DNA of 32,000 bases, taken from the NCBI RefSeq assembly GCF_000284115.1, contig NC_017080.1, positions 1,020,001-1,052,000 of the forward strand. The letters run 5' to 3'. The notes beneath the pieces are model-generated. The model searched no databases, had not been told where the DNA came from, and saw nothing but the letters and a program-made list of their open reading frames with translations. Origin of the DNA: Phycisphaera mikurensis NBRC 102666 (GTDB lineage Bacteria > Planctomycetota > Phycisphaerae > Phycisphaerales > Phycisphaeraceae). This document shows, piece by piece, positions 3,215-25,715 of the stretch. Each line of letters starts with the position of its first letter. Position 1 is the stretch's first letter. The translations under genes and the position numbers were made by a program.

Positions 3215-3310
3215 GACCGGACGGAGGATCCGGATCGTCCTCGAAAGAGGTGCAGAAGGTTGAGGCCTCAACGCGGTGGCCACGGGGGGCAGGGATGCCG
3301 AATGCAGGAA

Positions 3311-3694: not shown

Positions 3695-3800
3695 GGTGCC
3701 ACGCCGCTTGCGGGGTGGTGGTCGCCGGAGGCGACGCCAGCGGAGACGAAGTGCGGCCGCGTGTCCTGCGGACACCCCACCCCGCAAGCGGCGTGGCACC
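3695..3800. repeat. REPIN-like element A3 (106 nt)
   Basis: The arms are perfectly complementary over 24/24 positions. The spacer differs from A1 only near gaagtgcggcc vs gaaggtcggcc. Confidence 0.9.
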
Positions 3801-3896
3801 GACCGGACGGAGGATCCGGATTGTCCTCGAAAGAGGTGCAGAAGGTTGAGGCCTCGAAGCGGTGGCCACGGGGGGCAGGGACGCCGAGGCCGGGAA

Positions 3897-6900: not shown

Positions 6901-8072
6901 TCGGTCAGGAACCACCGCTTCACCTCCAGCGGGAAGGCCTCCGGCTCGCTCCAGGCGAACGGGACGTACTGCTCGTGCAGCGGGTCGTCGTAGGTCCCGT
7001 CGTTGGAGGCAAGCATCCGGGCGACGTAGCGGGCGCCCGGCACCGGGTGGTGGGTCGCGGTGATGCCGATCGACGGCTCCAGCGGCGTCACCTCCGCCGA
7101 GCCGCCCATGCTGCCCTCCTCCACCTTCGACAGCCGGTAGACCTTCCCGTCGAAGCCCATCGTGGTGAGCAGCTCCGGCATCGAGAGGACCAGCTCCGGC
7201 TCGTCGGCGGGCCCGAGCATGTCGAGGTACGCCGCCTGGAACTGATTGCCGTCGCCCAGGTGCGTCACCCCCACCTCGACCTGCACCGGCGGCACGACGT
7301 CGGCCACGCCGCCCGAGGCCGACGTTGGGAGCCGGAAGTCGGTGCGGATCGACTGGTCGTCGCGGAAGCGCAGCGTCCCCGCGCTCTGGATGCCCGCGAC
7401 GTCGCGGGCCGGGCTCCACGCCGAGAAGACGCCGCTGGGCTCGTAGCGCTTCACGTTGAAGCGCCAACGCTCGTCCTGCTCCGGCGGCCCGCCGACGACC
7501 GCCCAGGGCACCGTCATCTCGGCGGTCCACACGCCCTCCCCGACGTGCGCCGCGAAGCTCTCGTCCGGCAGGTTGGTCTCCCACCCGATGGCGGGCTCGT
7601 CACCGCCGCCCGCCACGAACGTCCCGTCGAAGAAGCCGCCGCCGGGGTTGATGATCAGGACGATCCCGGCGTCCGCGTCGGGGTGGTACAGGATCACCTC
7701 AAGAGCGTCGTCCTCCCACACCGCGCCGTCCCGCTCCGCGTCGGCCTTGAGCGGGGCGAGCGGGTTCTTCTCGGCCTCGAGCGCGAGGCGCAGCCCCTGA
7801 TCGTCGCCGGCGACCCAGACCCGGCTGTTGCGGGCGGCCCGATCCATCAGCGTCTCGGTGCTGTCGGCGGCCATGCGGCCGACGACCAGGAAGTCGCCGA
7901 AGCGGGTGGCGTTGTCCCACTCGCCGGCGTCGATCACGCCGTCGATGGCGACGGCGGCGTCCGCCAGGAGCGGGGCGGTGGTCACCGGCGGGCGGTAGTC
8001 CCGCTGCTCGGGCTCGGCGCTCGCGACCGCGGCGAGCAGGAGGGAGGCCGTGGGGAGGGAACGGTGGTTCAT
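3966..8072 (-). CDS. Large exported multidomain protein with an N-terminal CBM9-like carbohydrate-binding domain and glycoside-hydrolase-like middle and C-terminal regions (family unassigned)
   Basis: Part of track ORF 3966..8459. The start is set at ATG (complement of 8070-8072), which gives the signal peptide MNHRSLPTASLLLAAVASAEP. The N-terminal segment DGVIDAGEWDNATRFGDF ... GAVWEDDALEVILY ... WTAEMTVPWAVVGG ... RWRFNVKRY resembles CBM9/DOMON-like modules. The rest has normal, non-shadow amino-acid composition throughout. Confidence 0.8.
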   Translation of the reverse strand: MNHRSLPTASLLLAAVASAEPEQRDYRPPVTTAPLLADAAVAIDGVIDAGEWDNATRFGDFLVVGRMAADSTETLMDRAARNSRVWVAGDDQGLRLALEAEKNPLAPLKADAERDGAVWEDDALEVILYHPDADAGIVLIINPGGGFFDGTFVAGGGDEPAIGWETNLPDESFAAHVGEGVWTAEMTVPWAVVGGPPEQDERWRFNVKRYEPSGVFSAWSPARDVAGIQSAGTLRFRDDQSIRTDFRLPTSASGGVADVVPPVQVEVGVTHLGDGNQFQAAYLDMLGPADEPELVLSMPELLTTMGFDGKVYRLSKVEEGSMGGSAEVTPLEPSIGITATHHPVPGARYVARMLASNDGTYDDPLHEQYVPFAWSEPEAFPLEVKRWFLTDGTVRVGVPRAGLPEELRGADAVRVELKPADGRAAVASGEGSLADEPVTLDVSDLTPGPHELEVAVLKGGEEVRTRTVDLPIPEKPAWAGNTLGVSDGVLPPWEPLGFDGDAVTTTNRRYTFGDGLLPTQVVVELDRGDQPLLDAPVRLVAGDATLTPEGGAEELERTDARLVRRQVYAAGPLRVRLRSTLEFDGFLHFEVETLGDAEVPSLALEVPMRAAAATHFWRGYNGLKPIDAMTAAEWPIGGELDGERTMSFAPTVRLHGLDHGLEWFAEHDWDWRNEEPQRQIVIGEASGGRRVLRVNLLDHAATVPAGSRYDFGLIAIPTKRFELPWDELMLAGSSSIRDGVHLDDVEPARDPALWMPGRVPPASIAPGVFLRYPLRGNLDPAGGSLTIDLATLDAEHHDLFWLDFGDLAENEGLQARLLEAGGQTRLSLRSGGGEEAIAGPVAEAERVTLRWERAGGGTRFAASLGAGEEATLTLPVAPSAEDLREGVLLLGGDGRLVLDRVRIDDAGGAALLDDPLEESFRPNDFLETSAGGVPDRVARFAGGKLTLDVRAEMKIHEVNHRLGVNGVYVHWHARDDFYGPWYEIDGPEREAAYAAYHASREPTGVRHLPYYLKNMSINDPAWKDFGAEASIQPLAISFDHTVLAPSGPGLDFALWGIEKLLTDMDADFIHLDFGLPFPDASLGTGAGSIGPDGELRFSYPLLAHRELFKRIYKLCLDHDADFMPHTSPGIEMSYGSFATAGVTGEQEEFYFGFDHTRLYDQPVRDFLPDDRYLSHYPGMLLGTPHYQLTARHLTLMTGDVLLNWGSYLTMPYGDNPGNEDGRAGGHLKRDGAFAPYAAAADERLTSGPMMTRMAPYQTPVLADFGDADFVPFFHAASVGVSTDRPDDAFVSVAMKRDAPEALLLVGNFSHDSFDTTVSLDPGRLGVDGEAEVYDPVLRKVLDRNADGGLTVFTPKEFVRLLIVRPARR

Positions 8073-8101
8073 GGCGTCGCTCGCGGAGGCGTATTCTCGG
8101 A

Positions 8102-8149
8102 GCCGCGGACCGCCGCCGTCTGGCGGTCCCGGGAGGCGCGGTCCGCGGC
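8102..8149. repeat. Conserved-sequence hairpin in a divergent promoter region
   Basis: GCCGCGGACCGC (8102-8113) and GCGGTCCGCGGC (8138-8149) form a perfect 12-bp stem. An inner mini-hairpin CCGCC-gtct-GGCGG is present. Confidence 0.6.
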
Positions 8150-8164
8150 GGGCGGCAGGATCCG

Positions 8165-8187
8165 CTCTCGTATGATATGATGGAATT
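8165..8187 (+). promoter_or_regulatory. AT-rich island, putative promoter of the ABC importer operon
   Basis: Overlapping TATGAT hexamers (8171-8176 and 8176-8181) stand out against a very GC-rich background. The second ends 6 nt before GTG 8188. Confidence 0.3.
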
Positions 8188-10956: not shown

Positions 10957-10979
10957 GCCGGCCGCTCCCTCATCACCCC

Positions 10980-12767
10980 ATGCCGCTGATCAGCCCCATC
11001 GAAGCCAGGACCTTCAAGGGCCGCGCGCTGCACGCCGGCATCGTCGCGGTGCTTCTGCTGATCACCGCCTCGACGGTCTACCCCTTCCTGGTGATGCTCT
11101 CCGGCTCGGTGCGCAGCGAGTTCGACGCGGTCGACCTGGACCTCGTGCCCTCGTACCTCGTCGACCAGGACACGCTGCACCGCAAGTTCCTCGCCACCAA
11201 GTACGACCTCGACCCCCAGCTCGCCAACACCGCGCTCCTGCGGCAGGGCTTCTCCTTCACGAAGTTCCCGCTGCCCGAGGGCTCCGCCTCGCCGGAGGCC
11301 GCCGAGGCGCTCGCCGCGTTCCTCACCGCGCCGGATTTTCCCCGCCACTGGGCGACGCTGGGCAACGCCTACTCCGTCCGCGATGCGCCCGAGAACCTGC
11401 GGCGGCTGCAGGAGAAGCTCTTCGCCCGCTACGACGGCGACCTCGCGCGGCTCTCCGCCGAGTCGGGCACGCTCATCGAGGACTGGGCGCTGGTCCGCCT
11501 GCCGCAGCCGCGTTGGCTCAACCCCGGCTACCTCCTCCCCGACGGCCCGCTGGAGGAGACGTACTTCGAGCTGCTCCAGCAGCGCCCCGCCGCCGAGCGG
11601 GTGCCGGTCTCGGTCACCGGCTTCTTCCTTCAGACGGTGATCTTCCCGAAGTTCGGCCAGAACGACACGGCCGCCTACAACGCCGCGCACGCGGAGCCGC
11701 TGGCCGGGTACCACGACTTCCGCCTGCCCGAGCGCGTGCCCGGGCCCGACCAACCGGAGCTGCGGGCGGAGTGGCTCTCGTTCGCGCGCGGTCTGCTCAA
11801 TCCCTCCTTCGTCGTGGTGGACGGCCTCGACGACGCCGCCTGGGCCGCACACCTGCGCGAGCAGGGGGCGGCCGAGGCCGTGGTGGCGGCCTCGTCGGCG
11901 CCCGCCGGCCGCTGGCTCGCCGGCCGCGAGCGCGAGGCGTACGAGGCGTATCTGCGCGGCGTCGACCCCGAACGGCTCCGCCTGGTCGGCCCCGAGTTCG
12001 CCTGGGCCGCCGAGCACCCCGACCTCCCGCGGATGCAGGTTGCGCTCGCCGGGCTGGAGCAACGCTTCGTCGCCGAGAACGCGGGGTCGATCCGCTGGGA
12101 CTTCCTCACCCGCAACTACGTCAACGTGTGGAACGAGCTGACGGTGCAGGGCCGCGTGCTCTTCAACACCGCCGTCTTCTGCCTCGCCGCGATCCTGCTC
12201 GCGCTGCTGGTGAACCCGCTCGCCGCGTACGCGCTGTCCCGCTACCGCCTGCCCTCGACGTACAAGATCCTGCTGTTCCTCATCGCGACCATGGCCTTCC
12301 CGCCCATGGTCACGATGATCCCGCAGTTCGTGATGCTGCGGAACCTGGGGCTGCTGAACACCTTTCTCGCGCTGGTGCTGCCGCTGATCGTCAACGGCTA
12401 CATGATCTTCCTGTTGAAGGGCTTCTTCGACGCTCTCCCGCAGGAGCTCTACGAGGCCGCGACGATCGACGGCGCCGGCGAGCTGCGGATGTTCTTCCAG
12501 ATCACGATGGCGCTCAGCAAGCCCATCCTCGCGATCCTGGCCCTGGGCACCTTCACCGGCGCGTACACGATGTTCCTCTACCCGCTGCTGGTCGCCCCCG
12601 ACCAGGACATGTGGCTGATGTCGGTGTGGCTCTTCCAGTTCCAGCAGCGGAGCACGAGCGCCGCGGTCTTCGCCAGCGTCGTCATCGCCAGCGTCCCCAC
12701 GCTGATCGTCTTCCTCTTCACGCAGCGCATGATCATGCGCGGCATCGCGGTGCCGCAGGAGAAGTGA
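10980..12767 (+). CDS. MalG-like carbohydrate ABC permease with a roughly 350-aa periplasmic insertion after TM1
   Basis: In-frame ATG at 10980 inside track ORF 9864..12767, 24 nt after the upstream stop. TM1 is ALHAGIVAVLLLITASTVYPFLVML. A long soluble segment follows. The permease core has LFNTAVFCLAAILLALLVNPLAAYALSRY and the EAA loop LYEAATIDGAGELRMFFQITMALSKP. Confidence 0.85.
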   Translation: MPLISPIEARTFKGRALHAGIVAVLLLITASTVYPFLVMLSGSVRSEFDAVDLDLVPSYLVDQDTLHRKFLATKYDLDPQLANTALLRQGFSFTKFPLPEGSASPEAAEALAAFLTAPDFPRHWATLGNAYSVRDAPENLRRLQEKLFARYDGDLARLSAESGTLIEDWALVRLPQPRWLNPGYLLPDGPLEETYFELLQQRPAAERVPVSVTGFFLQTVIFPKFGQNDTAAYNAAHAEPLAGYHDFRLPERVPGPDQPELRAEWLSFARGLLNPSFVVVDGLDDAAWAAHLREQGAAEAVVAASSAPAGRWLAGREREAYEAYLRGVDPERLRLVGPEFAWAAEHPDLPRMQVALAGLEQRFVAENAGSIRWDFLTRNYVNVWNELTVQGRVLFNTAVFCLAAILLALLVNPLAAYALSRYRLPSTYKILLFLIATMAFPPMVTMIPQFVMLRNLGLLNTFLALVLPLIVNGYMIFLLKGFFDALPQELYEAATIDGAGELRMFFQITMALSKPILAILALGTFTGAYTMFLYPLLVAPDQDMWLMSVWLFQFQQRSTSAAVFASVVIASVPTLIVFLFTQRMIMRGIAVPQEK

Positions 12768-12897
12768 GGCGAGCCGCGGTCGGTCCGATCTGCCGCCCGC
12801 TCCTGCGCCCATGGGGTGCATCGCCGTCTCTCTCGTGCCGGCCGTGGCTCCCGGCCGACCGCCCACCCAGCCGCGGGAGCTGGCCCCGGACGGCTCC

Positions 12898-12932
12898 AAT
12901 TTTCCGCGAAAAGATATGGTAAGTTCTCCATT
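12898..12932 (+). promoter_or_regulatory. AT-rich island, putative promoter with an extended -10-like motif and a palindrome
   Basis: The sequence is aaTTTTCCGCGAAAAgataTGgTAAGTTctccatt-ATG. TAAGTT (12920-12925) lies 7 nt before ATG 12933. The quasi-palindrome TTTTCCGCGAAAA is at 12900-12912. Confidence 0.35.
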
Positions 12933-15900
12933 ATGAAACCCGCCTTCCCCGTTGCCGTGTTCTCGGGTCTGCTCGCCGCCTCGCTCGCTGCGGCTCCTGC
13001 GTCCGCCGCTGAGGTCCGGGTGGAGGGAGGTGCGGCCCGCGACGTGACCCGCGGCGGCGAGGCGTTGGCGTTCGTGGTGGACGGCGACGCGCTGAGCGAG
13101 TCGGTAACGATCGAGGTGGATGCCGAGACGATCGGCGACAGGGGTCGGTACTGGGCAAACCTCTCCGACCAGCCGCCACGGGTGCTCGAGGCGGACGGCG
13201 GCGTGTTGCGGTGGACGCTGCCCTGGGCGGCGAACACGGGCGTGCGGGTGGAGCCGGCGGCGGAGGCGGCGATGGCGGAGGGCTTCGACGGCGGCGAGAG
13301 CTGGCTGCCGGAGGGCTGGAAGAGCGACTTTGAGACGCGCGGCGCCCGGGCCGTCCGCGGGGGCGAGACGGCCTACGCCGCGCGGCCGGGCCTGCCGCTC
13401 GGCGACGGCGAGGCGATGTCGGTGAACCTGGCGGAGGGCGTGGGTCGCGGCGGTTCGGGCGCGGTCCGCGTCCACAAGCCGACGGCCGGCGGCGAGGCTT
13501 ACGCGTGGGGCGGTGCGGCGGAGGTGACGCCCGGCACGGAGTACCTCGCCGAGGCTTACTACCACGTGGAGCAGATGGCCTGGGGCGGCATGGGCTCGTT
13601 CTCAGTGGAGCTGGTCAACGCCGACGGCGACAGCCGCTACCTCAGCTACGAGCGGATGAACCCGCTGCAAGACAACCGGCCGGACCGGTGGCGGCGGGCC
13701 TTCCTGCGATTCACGCCGCGGGCCGGAGAGACGATGGCGCGTCTGTGGCTGGGGGTGACGGCGGCGCCGATCACGCTGCTCTTCGACGACGCGCGCATCA
13801 TCGAGGCGCCCACGGCCATCGAGCGGGCGGGGAACCCGCTGCCGGACGACGCGGGCCCCGCGAGGCTCAGCGCCGAGGAGGTCCACGCGATGCTCGCGGA
13901 CGAGACGCCCCGGCCGGCCGAAGTGCGGACGGTCCGCGGCCAGCCGACGCTTCACGTCGACGGCGAGCCGGTGGGCAACTTCAGCTTCAACCCGGGCTAC
14001 TACGACTGGGAGGCCGGCCAGCCGGCTTATCACGGCGTCGCCGGCGAGCAGGGCGTGCCGATCCACACGATCCCCATCGCCCTGGGCGATTCCCTCGGCG
14101 GCGGCGACGCGGTGGAGGACGCGGTCTGGCAGGGACCCGGCGACTTCGACTTCTCGATCATCGAGGAGCGGATCGTCGAGACGCTCCGCCGGGCGCCCGA
14201 CGCGCTGATCCGGCTGAACCTGAGCCCCGAGCCGTACTACGGCTTCCACCTCGACCACCCCGACGCGCTGTTCCGCACCGCCGGCGGGCAGGTGGTCACC
14301 GGCTACACCCACTCGGCCCCGCTGCGGGACCTCGCGGAGGTCGGCGACACCGAGTTCGTCTCGCCCAGCTACGCGAGCGCCACCTTCCGCGAGCTCTCCG
14401 GCGACGCCTTCGAGCGGGTCGGCCGCTGGCTCGCCGACCACGACCTCGGCAAGCGGGTGATCGGCATCCACTTGATCGGCGGCCACGACGGCCAGTGGCT
14501 GCCGCACGCGAACAAGCACGGCGAGCACGGCATGCGCGACTTCGGCGTCGAGCACGTCGAGGCGTTCCGGGCGTACCTCCGGGAGATCCACGGCGATGAC
14601 GCCGGCCTCCGGGAGGCCTGGGGCGATCCGGAGGTCACGCTCGCGAACGCGCTGCCCGCCGACGACGCCGGCTTCACCGCCGACCACGTGTTCTTCGACC
14701 CCGAAGTCGGGGAGGACCGGCGGCGGATGGACACGGTCCGCTTCATCCAGGTCGGCAAGGTGGAGACGATCGCGCACCTGCTCGAGGCCTTCGACCGGGG
14801 CCTCGGCCGGCCCGCCTTCCACAGCGTGTACTGGTCGGACGTGTACCACGGCCACGACCTGGACCACTGGGCGCTGACCGAGCTGCTGCGGGTCGACGCG
14901 CTCGACGCCGTCGCGAGCATCGCCGACTACTCGAACTGGCGGCGGCAGGGCCGGCCGGGCGCGATCAGCTCGGCCGCCGCGTCGATCCGGCTGCACGGCA
15001 AGGCCTTCATCGCCGAGGTCGACCACCGCACGCCGCACGCCTGGGGCAACGCCGACGCCAACGAAAACCAGGACTGGCTCGGCCAGATCGTCGACCCGCT
15101 GGACCCGATCCACGCCGCCCGGCGCGAGTGGGGGCAGGCGATGGCGCTCGGCGGCGGCGGCTGGCACTACGGCCTCGGCGGGCAGGGCTTCGCCTTCGAG
15201 CCCTATTGCGATGCCCTCGGCGAGGCGGCCGACGCCGCGCAGCGCCTCGCGGAGGACCCGCGGCTGGAAGCGGACCGCCCGCCGGTCGCGACCTTCGCCG
15301 ACGAGCGGGCGGTGATGGCGATGAGCCAGAGAAACATCGTCAACCTGATGACCGCCCAGCTCAGCGCCAACATGGCCCGCGACCCGCTCTCCACCAGCGG
15401 CCTGGGCTACGACCCCTACCTGCTCACCGACCTGGACCACCCCGACCGGCCGCGCTACCCCGTGACGCTTCTGCTCTCGGCGGTGACGATGACCCCCGAG
15501 CAGGTGTCCTGGGTGGAGGACAACCTCCAGCGAGACGGCCGCGTGATCGTCGTGTTCCACGCGGCCGGGCAGACGCACGCCGGCGGCGTCGCCGACACCG
15601 TCGACCGGCTGACCGGCATCGCGGTCGAGATGGACGAGAAACAGACGGTCTCGCAGCGATTGCGGGCCACCGGCGACGATCCGCTCAGCGAGCAGATCGA
15701 CTTCCACCGCCACGAGACCCCCGGGCCGCTGATCCGCGTGGTGGACGAGGAGGCGGTGCCGCTGGCCACGCACGCCGGCCGCGAAGACGTGGCCGCCGCA
15801 ATCAAGCGGCACGACGGCTGGACGGGCGTCTACGTCGCCGCGCCCGGGGCGCTCACGCCGCGGCTGCTGCGGAACCTCGCCGCCGAGGCCGGGGTGGAGC

Positions 15901-16112
15901 CGACCGGACCCGAGGGCGACATGACGATGGCCGGCAACGGCCTGATCGTCGTCCACGGCATGGATGCCGAGGCGGCGACGCCGCTGCGGTGGGACGGTCC
16001 GGCGGACCTGGTCGACCTCACGACGGGCGAGACGGTCGCCACCGGCACCGCGTCCGCCGAGGTGGACGTGCCCTTCGGCGAGACCAGGTGGTTCCGCCGC
16101 GAGCTGCGCTGA
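12933..16112 (+). CDS. Exported glycoside-hydrolase-like protein with an N-terminal CBM-like jelly-roll, a GH42-like TIM-barrel region and a trimerisation-like domain
   Basis: ATG at 12933 inside track ORF 12816..16112 gives the signal peptide MKPAFPVAVFSGLLAASLAAAPASA. FRAYLREIHGDDAGLREAWGDPEVTL resembles the GH42 motif region. SPSYASATFRE is also present. The later segment YPVTLLLSAVTMTPEQVSWVEDNLQRDGRVIVVFHAAG resembles the GH42 trimerisation (GATase-like) domain. Confidence 0.75.
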   Translation: MKPAFPVAVFSGLLAASLAAAPASAAEVRVEGGAARDVTRGGEALAFVVDGDALSESVTIEVDAETIGDRGRYWANLSDQPPRVLEADGGVLRWTLPWAANTGVRVEPAAEAAMAEGFDGGESWLPEGWKSDFETRGARAVRGGETAYAARPGLPLGDGEAMSVNLAEGVGRGGSGAVRVHKPTAGGEAYAWGGAAEVTPGTEYLAEAYYHVEQMAWGGMGSFSVELVNADGDSRYLSYERMNPLQDNRPDRWRRAFLRFTPRAGETMARLWLGVTAAPITLLFDDARIIEAPTAIERAGNPLPDDAGPARLSAEEVHAMLADETPRPAEVRTVRGQPTLHVDGEPVGNFSFNPGYYDWEAGQPAYHGVAGEQGVPIHTIPIALGDSLGGGDAVEDAVWQGPGDFDFSIIEERIVETLRRAPDALIRLNLSPEPYYGFHLDHPDALFRTAGGQVVTGYTHSAPLRDLAEVGDTEFVSPSYASATFRELSGDAFERVGRWLADHDLGKRVIGIHLIGGHDGQWLPHANKHGEHGMRDFGVEHVEAFRAYLREIHGDDAGLREAWGDPEVTLANALPADDAGFTADHVFFDPEVGEDRRRMDTVRFIQVGKVETIAHLLEAFDRGLGRPAFHSVYWSDVYHGHDLDHWALTELLRVDALDAVASIADYSNWRRQGRPGAISSAAASIRLHGKAFIAEVDHRTPHAWGNADANENQDWLGQIVDPLDPIHAARREWGQAMALGGGGWHYGLGGQGFAFEPYCDALGEAADAAQRLAEDPRLEADRPPVATFADERAVMAMSQRNIVNLMTAQLSANMARDPLSTSGLGYDPYLLTDLDHPDRPRYPVTLLLSAVTMTPEQVSWVEDNLQRDGRVIVVFHAAGQTHAGGVADTVDRLTGIAVEMDEKQTVSQRLRATGDDPLSEQIDFHRHETPGPLIRVVDEEAVPLATHAGREDVAAAIKRHDGWTGVYVAAPGALTPRLLRNLAAEAGVEPTGPEGDMTMAGNGLIVVHGMDAEAATPLRWDGPADLVDLTTGETVATGTASAEVDVPFGETRWFRRELR

Positions 16113-16167
16113 GCGGGCGGGCCGGGCGAGCCGGGAGGCCGGGCGGCTCCGCCCAGCGGGCCCGCGA

Positions 16168-16219
16168 GCGCCGCGGACCGGGGCCCGTTCCGGCTCCGCG
16201 GCCCCGCGGTCCGCGGCGC
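16168..16219. terminator. Conserved-sequence hairpin, probable terminator after the GH42-like gene
   Basis: GCGCCGCGGACCG-GGGC (16168-16184) pairs with GCCCCGCGGTCCGCGGCGC (16201-16219). That gives 13 bp, then 4 bp after a 2-nt bulge. Confidence 0.5.
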
Positions 16220-16472
16220 CGCATCACCGGCTCCCCAAGCCGCTGCGTCGTCGTCGGGGACCTCCAGAGGCGAGGCGTCGGCAACGAGGGCCAGATCCCC
16301 CGCCGCGGCGAAGCCCGGCACCCGGAGGATCCACGCCGCGGTGGCCCCGCCCGCCCACGATTTCCCTAAGGTGGATCGCATCGTTCATCCTTCTGGAATA
16401 GCCGGCGGGATCTCGGACGGCTTCCTTCCCGCTCCGCCCGGCGCGCGGGCACCCGCACCGCCGGTTTCCCGC

Positions 16473-17447
16473 ATGCTCGACACGCTGCCCATCGGAGAAG
16501 CGGCGGCCCTGGGCGCGGCGGCGGCGTGGGCGGTCTCGAGCATCCTCTGGGTGCGGATCGGCCTGCACGTCCGGGCGACGGTGGTGAGCCTGGTGAAGGG
16601 CGTGCTGGCGCTGGGGATGCTCGCCGCGGCGGCGTGGGCGATGGCGGTGGACTTCGGCTCGCTCTCGCCGCTGGCGCTGGGCTTCTTCGCCCTCTCGGGG
16701 GTGCTGGGCATCGGCTTCGGCGACACGCTGTACCTCGACTCGCTCAACCGCCTGGGCCCGACCCGCTCGCTGCTGGTGGCGATGCTGGCCCCGCCGCTGA
16801 CGATCCTCGGCGGCTGGGCGGTGCTGCAAGAGCGGGTGCCCCCGCTGTCGCTCTTGGGCGTGGCGGTGACGGTGGCGGGCGTCGCCTGGGTGGTGACGCG
16901 GCGGGAGCGGCCCGCGCCAAGCCCGCGGGTGCAGGCCGAGGCCGCTGCCGAGGAGGCCGCCGCCGCGGCGGAGCCCGCCGGAGCCGACGCGGCCCGCCGG
17001 TCGCTGTGGCTGGGCCTGGCGACCGGGGGCCTGGGCGCCGCGATGCAGGCCGCCAGCCTGATCGTCAACCGCTACGGGTACGCCCAGGGCGAGGCGGACG
17101 CGACGCTCACGACGATCGTCCGCATCGCCGCCGGGGTGGCGGTGCTCGCGGCTGCGCTGCCGCTGCTGGGGCGGCCCGCGGGCGCGGTGCCGGTGTGGCG
17201 GCTGGGCGGCCGGCTCTGGGGGCTGTTCGTCGCTGCGACGCTGATTGGCACCGCCGGCGGCATGGTGCTGATGCAGGTGGCGGTCGACCGCGGCCACAGC
17301 TCCGGCGTCGTGCAGACGCTGCTCTCCACCAGCCCGCTGTTCGTGATGCCCATGGTCGCGCTCACCGGCGAGCGGCTGAGCCTCTCCGCGGTGGCCGGGG
17401 CGCTGGTGGCGACCGCCGGTCTCGGGCTGCTGTTCGCGGGGCTCTGA
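16473..17447 (+). CDS. EamA/DMT-family transporter
   Basis: ATG at 16473 inside track ORF 16341..17447. The protein has about 10 hydrophobic helices in two halves separated by a charged linker RRERPAPSPRVQAEAAAEE. The segment GFGDTLYLDSLNRLGPTRSLLV is typical of EamA repeats. Confidence 0.8.
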   Translation: MLDTLPIGEAAALGAAAAWAVSSILWVRIGLHVRATVVSLVKGVLALGMLAAAAWAMAVDFGSLSPLALGFFALSGVLGIGFGDTLYLDSLNRLGPTRSLLVAMLAPPLTILGGWAVLQERVPPLSLLGVAVTVAGVAWVVTRRERPAPSPRVQAEAAAEEAAAAAEPAGADAARRSLWLGLATGGLGAAMQAASLIVNRYGYAQGEADATLTTIVRIAAGVAVLAAALPLLGRPAGAVPVWRLGGRLWGLFVAATLIGTAGGMVLMQVAVDRGHSSGVVQTLLSTSPLFVMPMVALTGERLSLSAVAGALVATAGLGLLFAGL

Positions 17448-17546
17448 CCTCCAGGTGCGACGGCCCCCGCCACCCCCCAAGGGGCGTGGCACCCGGGCAT
17501 CGGCCGATTCCGGAAGACGTGACAGGATCCGACGCTCCCGGCGCCG

Positions 17547-17623
17547 GGTGCCACGCCGCTTGCGGGGTGGTCGAGCGCCGATGGCGCCGACGGCGCCCGC
17601 CACCCCCCAAGGGGCGTGGCACC
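17547..17623. repeat. REP doublet B1 (77 nt; same left arm as family A, variant right arm, 29-nt spacer)
   Basis: The element reads GGTGCCACGCCGCTTGCGGGGTGG, then tcgagcgccgatggcgccgacggcgcccg, then CCACCCCCCAAGGGGCGTGGCACC. The arms are complementary at 22 of 24 positions. Confidence 0.9.
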
Positions 17624-17650
17624 CGGGCATCGGCCGGTCTCCCGACGCCG

Positions 17651-17726
17651 GGTGCCACGCCGCTTGCGGGGTGGTCGAGCGCCGATGAAGCCGACGGCGC
17701 CCGCCACCCTCAAGGGGCGTGGCACC
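17651..17726. repeat. REP doublet B2 (76 nt)
   Basis: Same architecture as B1, 104 nt downstream. The right arm carries a 1-nt deletion (CCACCCTCAAGGGGCGTGGCACC). Confidence 0.9.
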
Positions 17727-17852
17727 CGGGCATCGGCCGGTCTCGGGAGACGTGACAGAACCCGACGCTCCCGGCGCCGGGTGCCACGCCTCCCGCATGA
17801 GATGGCGAGATGGACCGAATGAACCCCCGGCGAAGGCCCCGCCGCAACTGTC

Positions 17853-19241: not shown

Positions 19242-20081
19242 TCAGGCGGCGCCCGCCGCCGCGGCGGCGTCGAAGGGCTCGCCGCAGGGGCCCCCGCCGG
19301 TGGCGTCGGCGAAGCCGCGGTGCTCGCGGCCGTCGAAGCGGAAGCAGGGCTTGTAGTGCGAGCCGATCGCCTCGGCGGAGGCGGGGGCGTAGTGGCAGAT
19401 GAAGCTGCGCCGCCAGCGGTCGGCGGTCGTGTTCGGCTTCGAGCCGTGCACCACGCTGCCGTTGAAGAACAGCACGTCCCCGGGCCCGAGCACGGCGGGC
19501 ACGGGCACCACGCCGGCGGGCGGGCGGACGAGGTCGGTGGTGAAGCTTTCGGCGGCGTCGGCGGCCTCGGGGCAGGCCACCTCCATGCCGTGCGTGCCCG
19601 GGCAGACGAACAGGCCGCCGTTCTCGGGGGTCGCGGCGTCCACCGCGGTCCAGGCGGCCACGCAGGTTTGCGGAGCCACCTTCAGGTAGAAGTTGTCCTG
19701 GTGCAGGGCCTGGCCGCGGCCGCCGGGCGGCTTGAAGTAGAACATGGACTGCGTGGCGATCGGCTCCTCGCCGAGCAGCCGGCGGAGGATCGCCCCGACC
19801 CGCGGGTCCAGCAGCATCGCCCGGCTGAGGCCGTCGATGCGGTGCGGGTGCATCACCCGCGGGTAGCGCTTCAGCGGGTCCGAGGAGTTGCGGTCGGGCT
19901 CCCAGTGGGGAGGCTGGTCGGGTGCGTTGGCGGCGAGGTCGTCGAAGCGTTCGCGGCAGGCGTCGATCTCCGCCCGCGACCACAGGCCGCGGACGATGAC
20001 GTAGCCGTCGCGCTCCCAGGCGGCGTGTTGCTCGGGGGTGAGGGCGGCGTCGGCGTGGCGGGCGGTGGCGGCGGGGGGCAT
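19242..20081 (-). CDS. Phytanoyl-CoA dioxygenase (PhyH) family Fe(II)/2-oxoglutarate oxygenase
   Basis: C-terminal 279 aa of track ORF 19242..22718, with the start at MPPAATARHADAALTPEQ (complement of 20079-20081). It has the HxD motif ALHQDNFYL, then LFFNGSVVHGSKPNTTADRWRRSFICHY. Confidence 0.85.
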   Translation of the reverse strand: MPPAATARHADAALTPEQHAAWERDGYVIVRGLWSRAEIDACRERFDDLAANAPDQPPHWEPDRNSSDPLKRYPRVMHPHRIDGLSRAMLLDPRVGAILRRLLGEEPIATQSMFYFKPPGGRGQALHQDNFYLKVAPQTCVAAWTAVDAATPENGGLFVCPGTHGMEVACPEAADAAESFTTDLVRPPAGVVPVPAVLGPGDVLFFNGSVVHGSKPNTTADRWRRSFICHYAPASAEAIGSHYKPCFRFDGREHRGFADATGGGPCGEPFDAAAAAGAA

Positions 20082-20168: not shown

Positions 20169-21101
20169 ATGTACGATCCTGCTGCCGTGCGACGGCCCGA
20201 GACCCCCGCCCCCGACACCCGCACGCTCGTCTGCGGGCACGACCGGCGGGGACCGGCCTACCGCAGCCGGCGCTCGGCCGGCACGGGGGACCACCTGCTG
20301 ATCTTCACGGCCGCGGGCGCCGGCGAGCTCCGCCACGCGGCGGGGCGGACGCGGCAGACCGCCGGGGAGGTGGCGCTGTACCGGCCCGGCACGCCGCAGG
20401 ACTACCGGACCGACCCGCGGACGGGGGCGGGACCGGCATCGTGGGAGCTTCTCTGGGCGCACGTGCGGCCGCCGGCCTCGTGGGCGCGGCTGCTCCGCTG
20501 GCCGGAGGAGGCGCCGGGCCTGGCCCGCCTGCGGCCCGAGCCGCACACCGCCGGGGCCGCGGAGGCCTCCCTCCGCGCCATGGTGGCCCACAGCCGGACC
20601 GCCCACGCCTTCCGCCTGGAGCGGGCGATGAACGCCCTGGAGGCGGCGCTGCTGCACCTCGTGGACGCGCTGCCGCCCGGGCCGGCGCACCCGCGGGTGG
20701 ACGACCGGCTCCGCGCCGTGCTGGACCTGCTGCACGCCCGCTTCGCCGAGCCCTGGACCAACGAGGCGCTCGCCCGGCAGGCGAAGCTGTCGACCTCCCG
20801 CTTCGCCCACCTCTTCCGCGAGCAGCTGGGCACCACCCCGCAGCGGTACCTCGAGGCGCAGCGGATCGGCCGCGCCAAAGAGCTGCTGGAGCGATCGGGC
20901 ACGACGATCGCGCGGGTGGCCGCCGAGGTCGGCTTCGACGATCCGCTGTACTTCTCCCGCCGCTTCGCGAAGCACGCGGGCGCATCGCCCCGCGCCTGGC
21001 AGGCCAAGCCGGAAGCCCGACCGGACGCCTCGCCCGCCGCGCCGCCGCGCGGGCGCCACGCGGCTTCCGGCGGAGACGCGGCCGTCCCGCCCCTCCCCTG
21101 A
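20169..21101 (+). CDS. AraC-family transcriptional regulator
   Basis: Track ORF 20106..21101 (GTG at 20106; ATG at 20169). The C-terminal double helix-turn-helix reads WTNEALARQAKLSTSRFAHLFREQLGTTPQRYLEAQRIGRAKELLERSGTTIARVAAEVGFDDPLYFSRRFAKHAGASPRAW. Confidence 0.85.
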   Translation: MYDPAAVRRPETPAPDTRTLVCGHDRRGPAYRSRRSAGTGDHLLIFTAAGAGELRHAAGRTRQTAGEVALYRPGTPQDYRTDPRTGAGPASWELLWAHVRPPASWARLLRWPEEAPGLARLRPEPHTAGAAEASLRAMVAHSRTAHAFRLERAMNALEAALLHLVDALPPGPAHPRVDDRLRAVLDLLHARFAEPWTNEALARQAKLSTSRFAHLFREQLGTTPQRYLEAQRIGRAKELLERSGTTIARVAAEVGFDDPLYFSRRFAKHAGASPRAWQAKPEARPDASPAAPPRGRHAASGGDAAVPPLP

Positions 21102-21254
21102 CCCCGCCGCACCCGCTCGCCTCCCGTCCCACGCAACACGCCCCGCCCGCCACATACCCCCTTCCACCAAACCCCTGCCACAAGAACGCTTGGCCCCTGC
21201 GGGCCCAATGGCAGGTCGCCGACCTGCCCTACGCCTAGGCGATACCGTCGGCTC

Positions 21255-21815
21255 TTGCCCGAGTATCGCCGCCGCTTCGTCCACCGGGCGTACTACTTCT
21301 TCACCCGCGTGACCGCGGGGAGGATGCCGATCTTCAAGGATCCTGCCAACGTCAAGCTCCTCCGCCTCGCCACCCGCGAAGCGATGGATCACAAGCCTTT
21401 CCGGATCATCGCGTCCGTCGTCCTCCCGGACCACATCCACGACATCATCCGCCTGCCCGAAGGCGATACCAACTACCCGCAGCACCTCCGCCGGATCAAG
21501 ACCAACTTCACAAAAGCCTACCTCGACGCCGGCGGAGCCGAGGCCGCCATCACCGATGCCCAGTCCCGCGACGCCCGGCGGGGCGTCTGGCAGCCGCGTT
21601 ACCTTGAGCACACGCTTCGCGACGAGAACGACTTCCGCCGGCACCTCGCTTACCTCCACATGAATCCGGTGCGACACGGCCTCGTGAAGAGGCCAGAGGA
21701 CTGGCCCGCGTCCTCCATCCACTCCTGGATCCGACGCGGCCTGCTCCGGCCCGGCTGGGGCACCCGTCACGGCGACGCTCCCGAGGAGACCGATGGCGGC
21801 TTCTTCGGCGACTGA
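21255..21815 (+). CDS. REP-associated tyrosine transposase (RAYT), IS200/IS605-like Y1 HUH family
   Basis: Track ORF with a TTG start. It has the HUH motif LPDHIHDII and the catalytic Tyr motif AYLHMNPVRHGLVKRPEDW. At 186 aa it is the typical RAYT size. It is flanked by inverted REP hairpins. Confidence 0.8.
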   Translation: MPEYRRRFVHRAYYFFTRVTAGRMPIFKDPANVKLLRLATREAMDHKPFRIIASVVLPDHIHDIIRLPEGDTNYPQHLRRIKTNFTKAYLDAGGAEAAITDAQSRDARRGVWQPRYLEHTLRDENDFRRHLAYLHMNPVRHGLVKRPEDWPASSIHSWIRRGLLRPGWGTRHGDAPEETDGGFFGD

Positions 21816-21853
21816 CCCCGCCGCCCCCCGTAGGGCAGGTCGGCGACCTGCCA

Positions 21854-21872
21854 TGCCGGCCGGAGGCCGGCA
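21854..21872. terminator. GC hairpin just after the RAYT gene
   Basis: TGCCGGCC-gga-GGCCGGCA forms an 8-bp stem about 40 nt after the stop at 21815. Confidence 0.35.
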
Positions 21873-22464
21873 GCGTCGGCCCACCCGATCCCCCCGCCAC
21901 CAACCCCATACCACAAGAACGCTTGGCCCCTGCGGGCCCAATGGCAGGTCGCCGACCTGCCCTACGCCTTGGCGGGGAGGCGGAAAAGGTGACAGCCACC
22001 CGACGGCGCCTCCTTCCCCTTCCCGGGTTCGAAGTGGCGACGCTCTTCGGCGTCTTGGCCTCGGTCCGCGCACCGTGAAGCGGGGGTGCCTCGGGGGCTG
22101 ATGGTCTTTGGAGCAGGCTTCCCGCTCGTCGCGCGGGAGCGGAGCGGCGGCCGGGTGCGACGGAGGGGGTTCTCGTGCTGGCCCGGCCCGCGTCGCGTTG
22201 CGACGCGGCTGGTTCGTCGTCGAGGAGGCGCGGCGTCTGCGCCTGATCGTCCCGCCGCAGCGGACCGCCGAGCAAAACGGCTTCCGGCCGCGACGGTCCG
22301 CGGCGGGCGGACGGTCTCTTCGTCGCGTGGGGGCAACCCGCGCCGGCTTGGGCAGCGGCGGGCGGAGCGGCGCGGCCTCGTTCGCAGAAGTGGTAGACTG
22401 CGTTCCGCAATCCGGAAGGAAGCAACCGGATGCACCCGTCCGTCCCACCCCGAGGTCCACCGGC

Positions 22465-25400
22465 ATGATCCATCTCCCTTCGTTCCTGGGCCGGCTGGCC
22501 CTCGTGGCCTCCGCGGCCTCTGTGGCATCGCCCGCCGCCGCGGGTGCGCTGCGGGCCGACTTCCACCGGCTCAGCCCCGGGGAGGTGCGGGCGGAGATCC
22601 GCTGGCCGGACTGGACGCTCTCGCCGCACGCGCCCGAGGGCACGCGGATCGCCGTGGAGGACGACCGCCTGGTCCTGCAGGACGACAGCCAGGAGAACGC
22701 GGCGGTGCTCAGCCTCACCGGGGACGCTTCCCGCGAGCCGCAGCCGGTGGAGATCCGCTTCTCGCTGCGGGTGGACGCGCCGGCCCGGGAGGCGGGCGAC
22801 CCCGAGGGCAGCGCCTTCGCCTTCCTGCGCTTCGGTCCGGCCTACGGCGAGGACTTGGGCTTCCTGCGGGTGATCCTTCCCGGCGACGCCGCCGAGGCGG
22901 GGCGGGCGTTCGTGGACGCTTCCTCGGGCGATGAACTCGTGCGGCCGTCCGGATCCGCGGGCGCCAGCATCCCACTCGCCGAGCCGGTGGACGTGGTGCT
23001 CCGGCTCGATCCGGCGGCGGGGACCTACGCGGTCCGCTTCGGGGGCGAGGAGGTCCTCGCCGGCGCCACGCTCGCCGGCGGCGTCGAGCCGCGCCTGGGC
23101 GTCTTCAGCGTGCACACGCCCTCGCGCGGCCGGGCCGGCATCAGCCTCGGCGATCTCGTGATCGAGCCGGTCGGCGACGCCGATGCCGACGCGGCCGGGG
23201 CGGCGCCCGCCTGGCCCACGCGTGCGGAGCCCCGGCCCGAGCTGCTCTCGCTCCTGAACGACGTCGACCTCCGCGGCGGCCGGCTCGTGGAGACGCCCGG
23301 CTTCGACCTGCAGGACGAGGGGGCGGAGTTCCAGTTCCAGCCGCACCTGTACTACTGGCCGGTCCGCGACGAGGCGGGCATCACCGCCTGGCGGTCGGAG
23401 GTCGAGAAGGAGTGGATCGGCCGGCACCTGTACAGCCTCCGGGCCTTCCCCGTGGAATCCAACCGGCGGTACGTGGTCTCGGCGCTGGTCAAGAGCCGCT
23501 TCGACCGGGCCAACAACGAGATCGACCTTGGTCTGGAGATGCTCACGATGAATCACGAGCGCCTGCCGGCCGAGCGGGTGGCGGGCCTGCCGGCGGACAC
23601 GGCGAGCGACCCCGACAACGTCGACGGCTGGGTGCGCTGGGAGTACGCGTTCGTCACCGCCAACTACGACGAGCCGGTGAAGGCCCGCTTCATCCTCCGC
23701 CACAACATCGGCTACACGGACCACGAGGCGATCGACCTCCGCCTGGCGCAGGTGAAGCTCATCGAGCTGCCCGTGGAGCCGCACGCGGTCGAGGGAGACG
23801 GGAGCGACCTGGTGACCTTCCGCGGCGGGCCGGGGAACCTGCCGATGGCGGTCGAGTCGGTGGAGGAGGACGGCGGCGTCTTCACCGTCCGGACCACCGG
23901 CGTGAAGTTCACGATCGACACCGACGCGGGGCGGATCGCCGCCCGCCAGCGGATCGACTTCCGACGCGACCTCTTCGACGCCGACCTCTCGCTGCCGCTG
24001 GCAGGCCTGCAGCTGGTGCGGCACGACGACACCGTCGCGGTGCTCCGCAACGAGCACCTGGCGATCGGCGTGCAGTGCGACGGCATGGCCGCGGTCGCCC
24101 CGCTCTCGCCGATGGCCGTCCTCGCCACCGCCCGCATCGGCGGAGCCTTCAACCGCCTCGGCCGCGGCAGCGTCTACGCCGGCGACGACTTCGGCGGCTT
24201 CGCCATCAACACGTACCCGGTGATCGGCAGCGGGACGACCGTCGATTTCGAGCCGGTGACCAGCGGGCTCTGGTTCGAGGGCCTCGCCCGCAACGACACC
24301 GAGACCATGGCGGCGGAAGGCGAGGCGTCGCGGCCGGGCTGGCAGATCCGCTGGGACCTCAAGCCCGGCGAACGGATCTTCCTCAGCGGCTTCCCCTGCC
24401 GGCCCTTCGATTGGGAACGGAGCTTCAGCGAGCACTACCAGCTCACCCATCGCGAGAACGAGGTCGAGGGTTACGACGACCCGTGGTACGACGTCGTGGA
24501 CGTGCTGATCCTCTGGGACTTCCACCAGCGCTCGTGGGGCATGGCCTTCGCGGACAACTACACGCCGTACGACGCGGAGCTCACCCAGGAGCACATCCGG
24601 GCGATCCAGGCAGAGGGCATGAAGGTCATGCCGTACAACTCGGCCTGGTTCCACCGGACGCGCGACCCGGAGGTCTGGGTCGAGAGCGCCCGGCGGATGG
24701 TCGAGGACGAGGGCTTCGAGGGCATGTACAGCGACGGCCTGCCGGCGGTGGAGTGGCTGGTGGGCTACGAGGAGATGCGGATGCTCCGCGAGGGCGTGCT
24801 GCCCGACGGCCCGATCCGCGTGCACGACTCGCTGCCGCAGAGCGGCCGCCACGTCGCGGAGTACGCCCCCTACGTCTACACCTACGCGAGCACGACCTAC
24901 CAGGCCGAGCACGTGAGCACCGACGCGGGCCCCGGCTGGCCGTGGGTCCGCTACGTGATCAACTCCTGGCGGCAGAGCAACGCCATCGGCGACATCAAGG
25001 GCGACAAGTGGCGCGGCTTCGGCGGCGACACGCCGGAGCAGCAAACCAGAAGCCGCCTCGCCGGCTTCATCTGGAACGCGCGGCCCGGCAGCGGCGCTCC
25101 CAACTACATGCAGGACGTCAAGCCGGTCTGGGACGCCCTCGAGGCCGACTGGCGGGAGCACGGCGACGACCCGTTCTACTACGACCGGCACTACCTGCCG
25201 CTGGCGCAGGAGCTCACCGGCTTCCGCATCGGCCGGGCGGCGATGCCGATCGTCGCGGAGGACGGAGACCAGGTGGAGCTCTCGACCAAGGCGACCGGCG
25301 ACGGCGTCGCGATCCGCTACACGCTCGACGGCAGCGAGCCGACGGCGGCGTCCGCGGCGTACGACGGCCCGGTCGCGCTCCCCGAGGGAGCGACGCTGAA

Positions 25401-25467
25401 GGCGGTGACGCTCGCCGAGGGCCTGGAGCCGAGCGCCGTCGCCGTTCACCCGCTGCCGGAGGACTGA
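22465..25467 (+). CDS. Exported multidomain glycoside-hydrolase-like protein with a C-terminal chitobiase/hexosaminidase-C-like domain
   Basis: ATG at 22465 inside track ORF 22108..25467 gives the signal peptide MIHLPSFLGRLALVASAASVASPAAA. The N-terminus looks like a LamG/jelly-roll region. The central segment has TIM-barrel-like motifs (DVLILWDFHQRSWGMAF, GMKVMPYNSAWF). The C-terminal segment GVAIRYTLDGSEPTAASAAYDGPVALPEGATLKAVTLAEG matches the CHB_HEX_C-type pattern. Confidence 0.75.
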   Translation: MIHLPSFLGRLALVASAASVASPAAAGALRADFHRLSPGEVRAEIRWPDWTLSPHAPEGTRIAVEDDRLVLQDDSQENAAVLSLTGDASREPQPVEIRFSLRVDAPAREAGDPEGSAFAFLRFGPAYGEDLGFLRVILPGDAAEAGRAFVDASSGDELVRPSGSAGASIPLAEPVDVVLRLDPAAGTYAVRFGGEEVLAGATLAGGVEPRLGVFSVHTPSRGRAGISLGDLVIEPVGDADADAAGAAPAWPTRAEPRPELLSLLNDVDLRGGRLVETPGFDLQDEGAEFQFQPHLYYWPVRDEAGITAWRSEVEKEWIGRHLYSLRAFPVESNRRYVVSALVKSRFDRANNEIDLGLEMLTMNHERLPAERVAGLPADTASDPDNVDGWVRWEYAFVTANYDEPVKARFILRHNIGYTDHEAIDLRLAQVKLIELPVEPHAVEGDGSDLVTFRGGPGNLPMAVESVEEDGGVFTVRTTGVKFTIDTDAGRIAARQRIDFRRDLFDADLSLPLAGLQLVRHDDTVAVLRNEHLAIGVQCDGMAAVAPLSPMAVLATARIGGAFNRLGRGSVYAGDDFGGFAINTYPVIGSGTTVDFEPVTSGLWFEGLARNDTETMAAEGEASRPGWQIRWDLKPGERIFLSGFPCRPFDWERSFSEHYQLTHRENEVEGYDDPWYDVVDVLILWDFHQRSWGMAFADNYTPYDAELTQEHIRAIQAEGMKVMPYNSAWFHRTRDPEVWVESARRMVEDEGFEGMYSDGLPAVEWLVGYEEMRMLREGVLPDGPIRVHDSLPQSGRHVAEYAPYVYTYASTTYQAEHVSTDAGPGWPWVRYVINSWRQSNAIGDIKGDKWRGFGGDTPEQQTRSRLAGFIWNARPGSGAPNYMQDVKPVWDALEADWREHGDDPFYYDRHYLPLAQELTGFRIGRAAMPIVAEDGDQVELSTKATGDGVAIRYTLDGSEPTAASAAYDGPVALPEGATLKAVTLAEGLEPSAVAVHPLPED

Positions 25468-25496: not shown

Positions 25497-25602
25497 GGTG
25501 CCACGCCGCTCGCGGGGTGGCGGTCGCCGGAGGCGACGCCGGGGGTGGCGCGGACGCGTCGCGTGTCCTGCGGGCACCCCACCCCGCAAGCGGCGTGGCA
25601 CC
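25497..25602. repeat. REPIN-like element A4 (106 nt)
   Basis: It has the same 24-nt arms (one mismatch) and the same length as A1-A3. The spacer core differs, but both sub-hairpins are retained. It lies 30 nt after the stop of the 22465..25467 gene. Confidence 0.9.
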
Positions 25603-25715
25603 CGGACCTCGGGCGGGCTCGGAGGATGGGTTGAAGCTTGAGCCTGGAGGTGGGGGCACGGGAAGGGGCGATAGGCCCGCGGGAAATCGGGGTGCGGGCG
25701 AGCCTCCGCGGCGGG

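Follow-up and report, generated by a model that had tools for sequence, protein, structure and literature searches.

Does a small transposase-like gene in a planctomycete chromosome form one system with the hairpins that surround it, and what relation does it have to the other palindromes nearby? The question is raised by a locus of Phycisphaera mikurensis NBRC 102666, contained in a stretch of 32,000 nucleotides of contig NC_017080.1 (positions 1,020,001 to 1,052,000). This whole stretch is called the window hereafter, and coordinates refer to it unless another contig is named. In NCBI assembly GCA_014207395.1, it corresponds to the reverse complement of about bases 152-32151 of the 215-kb contig JACHEL010000007.1. 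The gene is a candidate REP-associated tyrosine transposase (RAYT), REP standing for repetitive extragenic palindrome. A sequence-only reading of the window had proposed that it is bracketed by its own GTAG-tagged REPs, distinct from a more abundant family of palindromes. According to the analysis presented here, positions 21157-21974 very probably constitute a REPtron, i.e., a single RAYT gene, encoding an HUH/Y1 endonuclease-transferase acting on single-stranded DNA (ssDNA), flanked by cognate REPs.

The protein was considered first. The gene (21255-21815, plus strand) begins with a TTG codon and encodes 186 amino acids, with the motifs VVLPDHIHDII and AYLHMNPVRHGLV. The HUH motif is H60-I-H62 and the catalytic tyrosine is Y133. 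The RAYT equivalog model of NCBIfam, NF047646 (REP_Tyr_transpos), matches with 165.8 bits at a cutoff of 80 and is covered from position 1 to 145 of 146. The sole match in the PDB is Escherichia coli TnpA-REP (4ER8), with E = 1.9e-28 and 40% identity over residues 1-169. In this alignment, VVLPDHIH pairs with VVLPEHMH, so that H60-I-H62 falls on the E. coli HMH motif, and AYLHMNPV pairs with DYIYINPV, which makes Y133 the counterpart of the E. coli catalytic Y115. The order is that of HUH followed by a single catalytic tyrosine. When 46 RAYTs are aligned, no variation is seen at H60 and H62, and conservation reaches at least 90% at Y133, N137 and P138. On these grounds the prediction of a RAYT with HUH and Tyr motifs is upheld, and the 186-aa protein is assigned to the REP-associated tyrosine transposases from its sequence.

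The subclass can be addressed at the level of motifs. In comparison with Table 1 of Quentin 2018, YLHMNP and DHIH fit class 2, the true RAYTs, and come nearest to subclass 2.2 (YIHYNP; Bertels group 2, the E. coli type). The Tyr motif is unlike that of the IS200 class 1 (Y..NQ). The motifs, together with a C-terminal extension, seem to bring the protein nearer to group 2 than to group 3. No tnpB open reading frame (ORF) was found beside the gene. Two homologs (on contigs L124 and L126, described below) have an ATG at the matching codon, which confirms where the gene starts. The ratio of nonsynonymous to synonymous substitution rates (dN/dS) is 0.17-0.35 against three homologs (0.17, 0.30 and 0.28 at 89%, 78% and 66% nucleotide identity), which indicates purifying selection on the gene. 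Among homologs bearing an organism name, the closest comes from Rubinisphaera italica and another from a metagenome-assembled genome (MAG) of the Tepidisphaeraceae.

Around this gene stand three copies of GTAG-GGCAGGTC-NNN-GACCTGCC. The hairpin GGCAGGTCG[C/G]CGACCTGCC occurs exactly three times in the window, at 21210, 21834 and 21943, where 0.09 occurrences are expected, and 0/100 shuffled sequences reached three. When up to 3 mismatches were allowed, the 32 kb held no hairpin match besides these. GTAG abuts the hairpin at 21830-21852 on the plus strand; the copies at 21210-21232 and 21943-21965 are abutted by CTAC, which is GTAG read from the minus strand, in agreement with the earlier description. 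The tag is found at the 5' foot of 3/3 window copies and of all of the approximately 60 copies in relatives. Its presence counts as independent evidence, since the pattern used for the genome scan omitted GTAG.

Each hairpin is the first part of a longer unit. Upstream of the gene, a B-type unit on the minus strand (21186-21232) reads GTAG-GGCAGGTC GGC GACCTGCC-AT-TGGGCCC GCA GGGGCCA-AGCGT; it scores 67.5 bits with a covariance model, is predicted to fold on ssDNA as two hairpins, and has its CTAC 22 nt 5' of the RAYT start codon. Downstream, an A-type unit on the plus strand (21830-21876) begins 14 nt past the stop codon and reads GTAG-GGCAGGTC GGC GACCTGCC-AT-GCCGGCC GGA GGCCGGC-AGCGT (69.9 bits; two hairpins, z = -3.4). 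It is identical to positions 9763-9809 of L122, a contig of a relative. The gene is accordingly enclosed by a reverse and a forward unit, as expected of REPs in inverted flanking positions. A linker (21877-21918), partly conserved with the corresponding linker of L122 (85.7% for 21819-21975 versus L122 9752-9919), connects the A unit to a second B-type unit on the minus strand (21919-21965), which is identical to the first and also scores 67.5 bits. The A and second B units form an inverted doublet of 136 nt (21830-21965), similar to a REPIN or BIME, with the GTAG tags at its outer ends. The stretch 21826-21969 (144 nt) is predicted to fold as one long ssDNA hairpin of -54.1 kcal/mol, compared with -28.2 kcal/mol after shuffling (z = -8.4).

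The cassette had also been described as bounded by perfect direct repeats of 59 bp (21178-21236 and 21911-21969), each with a second hairpin GGCCC-ctgc-GGGCC. These repeats are present and are nested in a longer repeat of 85 nt with 93% identity (left copy 21157-21241, right copy 21890-21974), but their role as a boundary needs refinement. On their sequence, they are the two B-type REP units with adjacent linker and 9 nt of the gene leader: the left copy contains linker, B-type unit and the 9 nt of RAYT leader, and the right copy supplies one half of the doublet. The second hairpin is part of the REP itself.

Taking all GTAG-oriented copies together, the REP module has a length of 45-49 nt (47 nt in the window) and consists of GTAG, hairpin 1, AT, hairpin 2 and GCGT; the pattern for the 47-nt unit is GTAGGGCAGGTCNNNGACCTGCC. 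Each unit folds as two adjacent ssDNA hairpins. Hairpin 1 is a perfect 8-bp stem with a 3-nt loop, and its stem is invariant. Hairpin 2 has 6-9 bp, its sequence varies and its pairing is kept. Double-sided changes were found at 5/6 modelled pairs; among the 16 distinct units, 1 to 8 show them per pair (7 or 8 for four of the pairs), and 99.1% of cells are paired. The covariation score of hairpin 2 is 0.343 compared with 0.074 for shuffled data (0/500 reach it), and it falls to 0.09 or less when the partner is slid by 1-3 columns. Two flavours of hairpin 2 exist, A (ATGCC...GGCAGCGT) and B (ATTG...CAAGCGT), and every doublet seen in the window and in relatives joins an A unit to a B unit that is inverted relative to it.

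The strongest argument that gene and hairpins belong together comes from relatives. The closest RAYT homologs are all metagenomic and lie on six contigs, with amino acid identities of 90% over the full 186 residues (L122 and L123), 77% (L124), 76% (L125, truncated) and 62% (L126 and L127). In all six loci, a reverse GTAG-hairpin ends 20-41 nt 5' of the start codon. A further copy follows 13-42 nt after the stop codon, in forward orientation in L122/L123 and L126/L127 and in reverse orientation in L124. L125 has no copy after the stop codon because its RAYT gene is cut by a group II intron. L126/L127 keep the stem and GTAG but have TTC/GAA instead of GGC/GCC as the loop. At the nucleotide level, the window is homologous to L122 over 21161-21975, with the outer REPs as the limits, so what is conserved as a unit is the gene together with its REPs. 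The proposal that the gene is flanked by REPs of its own is borne out, as the same hairpin, with the same reverse upstream copy, was recovered at every close homolog found. On this comparison, the REPs are cognate to the RAYT gene, the association being kept across homologs of 62-90% identity despite their differing contexts.

Some details of these loci deserve mention. In L125 (10441-12401), RAYT homology stops at residue 147 and gives way to a complete group II intron (RF02005, 158.6 bits; RF00029, 41.4 bits; an RVT_1 ORF), evidently inserted into the 3' end of the gene. In L122, the TAG of the first GTAG serves as the stop codon of the upstream ORF.

The REP family is more widely spread in some of the relatives. 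In L126, doublets occur 7.4 kb upstream (2516/2627) and 3 kb downstream (13535/13711) of the RAYT gene, together with tandem arrays having periods of 223 and 164 nt upstream and ten 73-nt units downstream (8987-9929 and 10698-11421; likewise in L127). Gene callers annotate the REP arrays of L126/L127 as ORFs of 227 and 436 aa. L124 carries one unit 1.6 kb upstream (8382) and three units 9-10 kb downstream (19625-20049). L126/L127 have several doublets; L122, L124 and L125 have one each beside the RAYT gene, and one was found in the source DNA examined, which amounts to 41.4 kb (the 32-kb window and 9.4 kb of the same contig). More distant variants were also seen. GTAG and the identical stem, with a different 3' part and without a RAYT in the stretches fetched, occur in four Phycisphaerae MAGs (L048, L112, L115, L118). 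The stem GGCAGGTC...GACCTGCC is found in Planctomycetaceae and other Planctomycetota MAGs (L006, L027, L032, L041, L044, L119), with GTGG replacing GTAG in the Planctomycetaceae. In 23 lower-GC contigs of JGI metagenomes (L132-L154), the stem and GTAG come with other loops and without the second hairpin. One of them, L140, has a RAYT-like gene of 31% identity (277-597) with hairpins on both sides.

Several observations weigh against the interpretation as a REPtron. The match to Pfam Y1_Tnp (PF01797), which the sequence-only reading had put forward as a check, reaches 20 bits and is marginal at a gathering cutoff of 23; the RAYT-specific NF047646 was taken as the decisive model. Mismatch and covariance-model searches gave 0 REP units beyond the three local ones in the 41.4 kb, so that further copies of the hairpin, whose absence would have spoken against the sequence-only reading, exist in relatives and not in the source DNA covered. 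A scan of the genome collection with the hairpin alone returned at least 120 matches, mostly chance palindromes inside genes, since the pattern is too permissive for high-GC genomes (the window has 72.6% GC); the source genome was absent among the matches listed. Moreover, a protein resembling group 2 is paired with a hairpin 1 whose geometry resembles group 3, which would make the details of the E. coli mechanism an extrapolation. The element could be inactive in the source genome. Within the 41.4 kb, the REP family appears small and concentrated at the RAYT gene. REPtrons with REPs clustered around tnpA have been read as recent arrivals (Corneloup 2021, PMC8266576), and that description would fit the window cassette.

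The scarcity of REPs leads to the alternative that survives best, namely that a resident RAYT has stagnant or nearly extinct REPs and that the proliferating palindromes of the window are driven by another RAYT or TIRYT elsewhere. It is a serious possibility, though held somewhat short of even, and it is compatible with the REPtron rather than exclusive of it. The dispersed GTGCCACGCC family, already noted in the sequence-only reading as dissimilar to the RAYT-flanking hairpin, is indeed real and unrelated to it in sequence. It comprises 14 exact arm cores in the window, arranged in four palindromic elements of 109 nt (3109-3217, 3473-3581, 3695-3803 and 25497-25605) and one cluster of arms (17470-17790). 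The arms read GGTGCCACGCC[G/C]CTTG[C/G]GGGGTGG with a fixed GGTG tag. The arm itself forms a hairpin in whose stem one pair covaries and a central G.G mismatch is conserved. It is followed by a small hairpin 2 of two flavours (GTCGCC-gga-GGCGAC or GTGTCC-gca-GGACAC), and the four 109-nt elements join both flavours in inverted orientation (fold z = -7.3). The second family shares no sequence similarity with the REPs of the RAYT, yet has the same modular, REP-like build: a 5' tag, a mismatched hairpin 1, a two-flavour hairpin 2 and heterotypic doublets. In the 41.4 kb, 0 GTAG-REP units outside the cassette compare with 13-14 arms of this family at three intergenic sites, all between convergent genes; the 9.4-kb extension holds neither family. 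It was absent from the RAYT loci of the six relatives, from the syntenic locus L128 and from the JGI metagenomes (0 matches), which argues for an expansion in this lineage. A second RAYT or TIRYT elsewhere would most likely drive it, since species with several REP families are reported in Di Nocera 2013 (PMC3733652) to carry repeat-specific REPtrons. Against the idea of stagnation stands the RAYT of the window itself, intact and under purifying selection, and a second RAYT was seen neither in the window nor in its 9.4-kb extension. A profile built from the 46 RAYTs also gave none, among the best 120 of 1674 matches, on the 3,803,225-bp contig carrying the 1000-aa protein of the window, a result that is uninformative for a divergent paralog.

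Another question is how the cassette came to its present position. It separates an AraC-family regulator (20187-21101) from a glycan-related, exported protein of 1000 aa with Fn3_assoc and CHB_HEX_C_1 domains (22465-25467), as the sequence-only reading had described. About 490 nt between the cassette and the latter gene (21975-22464) are without an assigned feature. The suggested synteny comparison was carried out with L128 (GCA_964388485.1), which encodes a 71%-identical ortholog of the 1000-aa protein in the order EamA, aminotransferase, PhyH, AraC-type regulator, slot, ortholog. The cassette is absent from the matching slot (L128 9506-9886, equivalent to 21102-22464), which is occupied by a RidA/L-PSP gene of 126 aa, and within the 23-kb syntenic locus there is no RAYT, nor either of the repeat families. 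In each of the five close relatives, the cassette lies directly downstream of MmeI-type restriction-modification genes, often fragmented (L122 7710-9766, L124 7962-9593, L125 9106-9836, L126 6509-9001, L127 2-1753); the MmeI-type genes of L122 and L126 are just 28% identical. These regions, with PIN, GmrSD, IS66 and reverse transcriptase genes, look like defence or mobile-element regions. An interruption of the MmeI gene by the cassette was considered for the relatives, but the ORFs on either side have no MmeI Pfam match, and adjacency alone is claimed. In the window, neither a RidA nor an MmeI remnant was found. The position of the cassette is thus not ancestral or conserved, as the syntenic L128 and all close relatives have other contexts.

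The order of parts differs as well. The window order B, gene, A, B can be derived by circular permutation from the order in L122 (A, B, gene, further forward unit), where the hairpin 2 of the further forward unit fits neither the A nor the B flavour. One might suppose that the RAYT and its REPs were relocated here as one unit, so that the window catches a REPtron after its relocation. This is a rather doubtful proposal, although several facts fit it: a 733-nt unit (B-REP, RAYT, A-REP) with 85 nt of terminal redundancy is permuted in relation to the 90%-identical L122, homology to relatives ends exactly at the outer REPs, MmeI-type genes, missing without trace from the window, adjoin the cassette in the five close relatives, and this slot of a syntenic genome holds the RidA gene. 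A circular single-stranded intermediate, or one of greater than unit length, made by the HUH enzyme itself, would leave such a permuted pattern. Local REP turnover flanking a resident gene fits the permuted order equally well, and L128 is too distant to count as an empty site. RAYT genes are generally regarded as immobile and domesticated. The differing context argues, if anything, against a strict positional conservation of the RAYT.

From the same facts the cassette might be taken for an autonomous insertion sequence of the IS200/IS605 kind, with an ordinary self-moving Y1 transposase and hairpins as its subterminal ends. The missing cassette in the L128 slot between AraC regulator and hydrolase-like gene, the other context of all close homologs, the permuted arrangement with its 85-nt redundancy and the presence of three RAYT alleles on four contigs of one metagenome assembly would all suit a mobile element. 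This interpretation is nonetheless improbable. The RAYT equivalog model is matched far above its cutoff, while Y1_Tnp remains sub-threshold (20 < 23); the Tyr motif YLHMNP is of the class 2 type Y...NP and not Y..NQ; and no TnpB partner is present. Furthermore, the GTAG hairpins often occur without the gene, as doublets and arrays, and both ends of the cassette are the same REP type in inverted orientation instead of distinct left and right ends. The absence from L128, at 71% amino acid identity of the neighbouring ortholog, is not an empty-site polymorphism.

Still less credit can be given to the idea that the one RAYT acts on the abundant GGTGCCACGCC family as well as on its own REPs. Both families share the modular architecture, and the imperfect hairpin 1 of the second family, with its central mismatch, is what E. 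coli-type (group 2) enzymes need, the protein being E. coli-like. The second family, however, lacks GTAG, has a dissimilar hairpin 1, does not flank the RAYT here and is missing at the RAYT loci of all six relatives, and published reports describe a specific, pairwise co-evolution of TnpA-REPs with their REPs. Finally, the notion that the hairpins serve the flanking genes as ordinary terminators or operator palindromes and stand beside the ORF by coincidence finds some footing in their GC-rich, intergenic position near gene ends, but is effectively refuted by REPs that travel with the RAYT in relatives, the same 47-nt modules accompanying it in five unrelated contexts and forming arrays with an invariant GTAG, and by scans that gave neither terminator-like T tracts nor promoter matches. 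Scanned against Rfam and for promoters and terminators, the window or the cassette gave no matches.

For the REPtron, then, a mechanism can be outlined by analogy with better-studied systems. GTAG is required for binding and cleavage by TnpA-REP, and cleavage takes place at C^T, the caret marking the cut, according to the literature. By analogy with E. coli, Stenotrophomonas maltophilia and Marinomonas (PMC3333891, PMC8266576), the RAYT would bind the folded REP on ssDNA and read GTAG and hairpin 1. Either the inverted partner or the linker would then be cut at C^T, for instance within the GCC^CTAC that forms the foot of the inverted REP. A 5'-phosphotyrosine intermediate would be formed, and the strands would then be rejoined. 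Such rejoining would multiply and reshuffle REP doublets, first beside the enzyme's own gene. Hairpin 2, whose shape is what is conserved, may serve to place the enzyme or to make the ssDNA fold more stable.

Among known systems, the E. coli K-12 REPtron (TnpA-REP YafM, 4ER8; Ton-Hoang 2012, PMC3333891; Messing 2012, PMC3479197) is close in several respects. The proteins align over their whole length, with the HUH motif, the tyrosine and the C-terminal region conserved, and the gene is likewise flanked by 5'-GTAG REPs. The two flavours always meet in inverted doublets, as y and z do in BIMEs, and the foot of the inverted REP, CC^CTAC, may be compared with the iREP cleavage site CC^TAC. In contrast, E. 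coli REPs are single imperfect palindromes of 29-37 nt in which a bulge is essential, whereas hairpin 1 here is short and perfect and is followed by a separate second hairpin. About 600 REPs are dispersed in E. coli, and none was found outside the cassette in 41 kb here. As for group 3 (Corneloup 2021, PMC8266576), the REP-Sm of S. maltophilia is a perfect 16-nt palindrome with a 3-nt interruption and GTAG directly before it, which is the geometry of hairpin 1. The REPs of Marinomonas MWYL1 are concentrated around tnpA, as in the window and its relatives. The protein is nevertheless nearer to group 2 by motifs and C-terminal extension, group 3 having been judged by description, and an obligatory second hairpin is not part of the published descriptions of group 3 REPs.

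Similar REPs have been documented in the Planctomycetes and the wider PVC group, for instance in Rhodopirellula baltica and Opitutus terrae. Di Nocera 2013 (PMC3733652) covers 24 REP families and documents GTAG REPs, with several REP families and tyrosine-transposase genes per genome, in a planctomycete. It also gives GTGG tag variants, which were seen here in Planctomycetaceae MAGs, and, at the RAYT flanks of Pseudomonas putida and P. fluorescens, REP units joined to an unrelated second stem-loop. The lineage studied here differs in being high-GC and belonging to the Phycisphaerae. In the REPIN-RAYT systems of Pseudomonas (Bertels & Rainey 2011, PMC3116915; Bertels 2017, PMC5581495), inverted doublets also fold into a long hairpin and the RAYT is flanked by its own REPs. 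The classical RAYT is vertically inherited in a conserved position with hundreds of REPINs, whereas here no close relative shares the position and very few REPs are present locally.

Further repeats and genes of the window were recorded. A third palindromic family, CCGCGGACCG-N26-CGGTCCGCGG of about 46 nt, has six copies (3312, 3898, 8103, 16171, 19194 and 31777), all intergenic and with variable centres, without an Rfam match; single CGGTCCGCGG arms lie at 13930, 22294, 28510 and 30331. A direct duplication of 300 nt (3011-3310 and 3597-3896, 95% identity) carries one second-family element in each copy and reaches the start of the neighbouring CCGCGGACCG-type element. A Logan short-read contig of another sequencing run (L156, SRR12223476), sequence-identical to window 4013-17494 and probably from the same strain, ends inside the first second-family arm, at 17494, and at its other end just past the duplicated repeat region, near 4013, so these repeats break short-read assemblies. 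Logan contig ends were considered as a sign of a high copy number of the second family, and the argument was dropped because the breaks also coincide with local duplications. Two divergent pairs of a PhyH dioxygenase and an AraC regulator occur within 20 kb (window 555-1430 with L157 9013-9966; 19242-20081 with 20187-21101), among genes for glycoside hydrolases (GH123, MGH1-like) and sugar ABC transporters. Given these surrounding genes, the RAYT cassette lies inside a carbohydrate-utilisation region. Neighbouring genes also encode N_methyl/SBP_bac_10 domains.

The REPtron described here is genuine but ordinary, and its arrangement is well described in other bacteria. GTAG REPs, REPtrons, multiple families and RAYTs per genome (including a planctomycete), fusions with a second stem-loop, heterotypic doublets and REPs clustered at tnpA had all been described before. 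A literature search for the hairpin sequence returned solely unrelated primer matches. What is added is a clean, comparatively supported pair of RAYT and REP from a high-GC planctomycete of the Phycisphaerae type, a group little sampled in work on REPs and RAYTs. The bipartite REP, with one invariant and one covarying hairpin and two pairing flavours, is a natural dataset for separating the parts that are read as sequence from those read as shape. Moreover, two families of like build in one genome, with different tags and with a mismatched stem in one of them, would, given the complete genome, offer a test of the one-to-one pairing of REP families and RAYTs. The significance is modest: the current understanding of REPs and their transposases is extended to this lineage and not changed.

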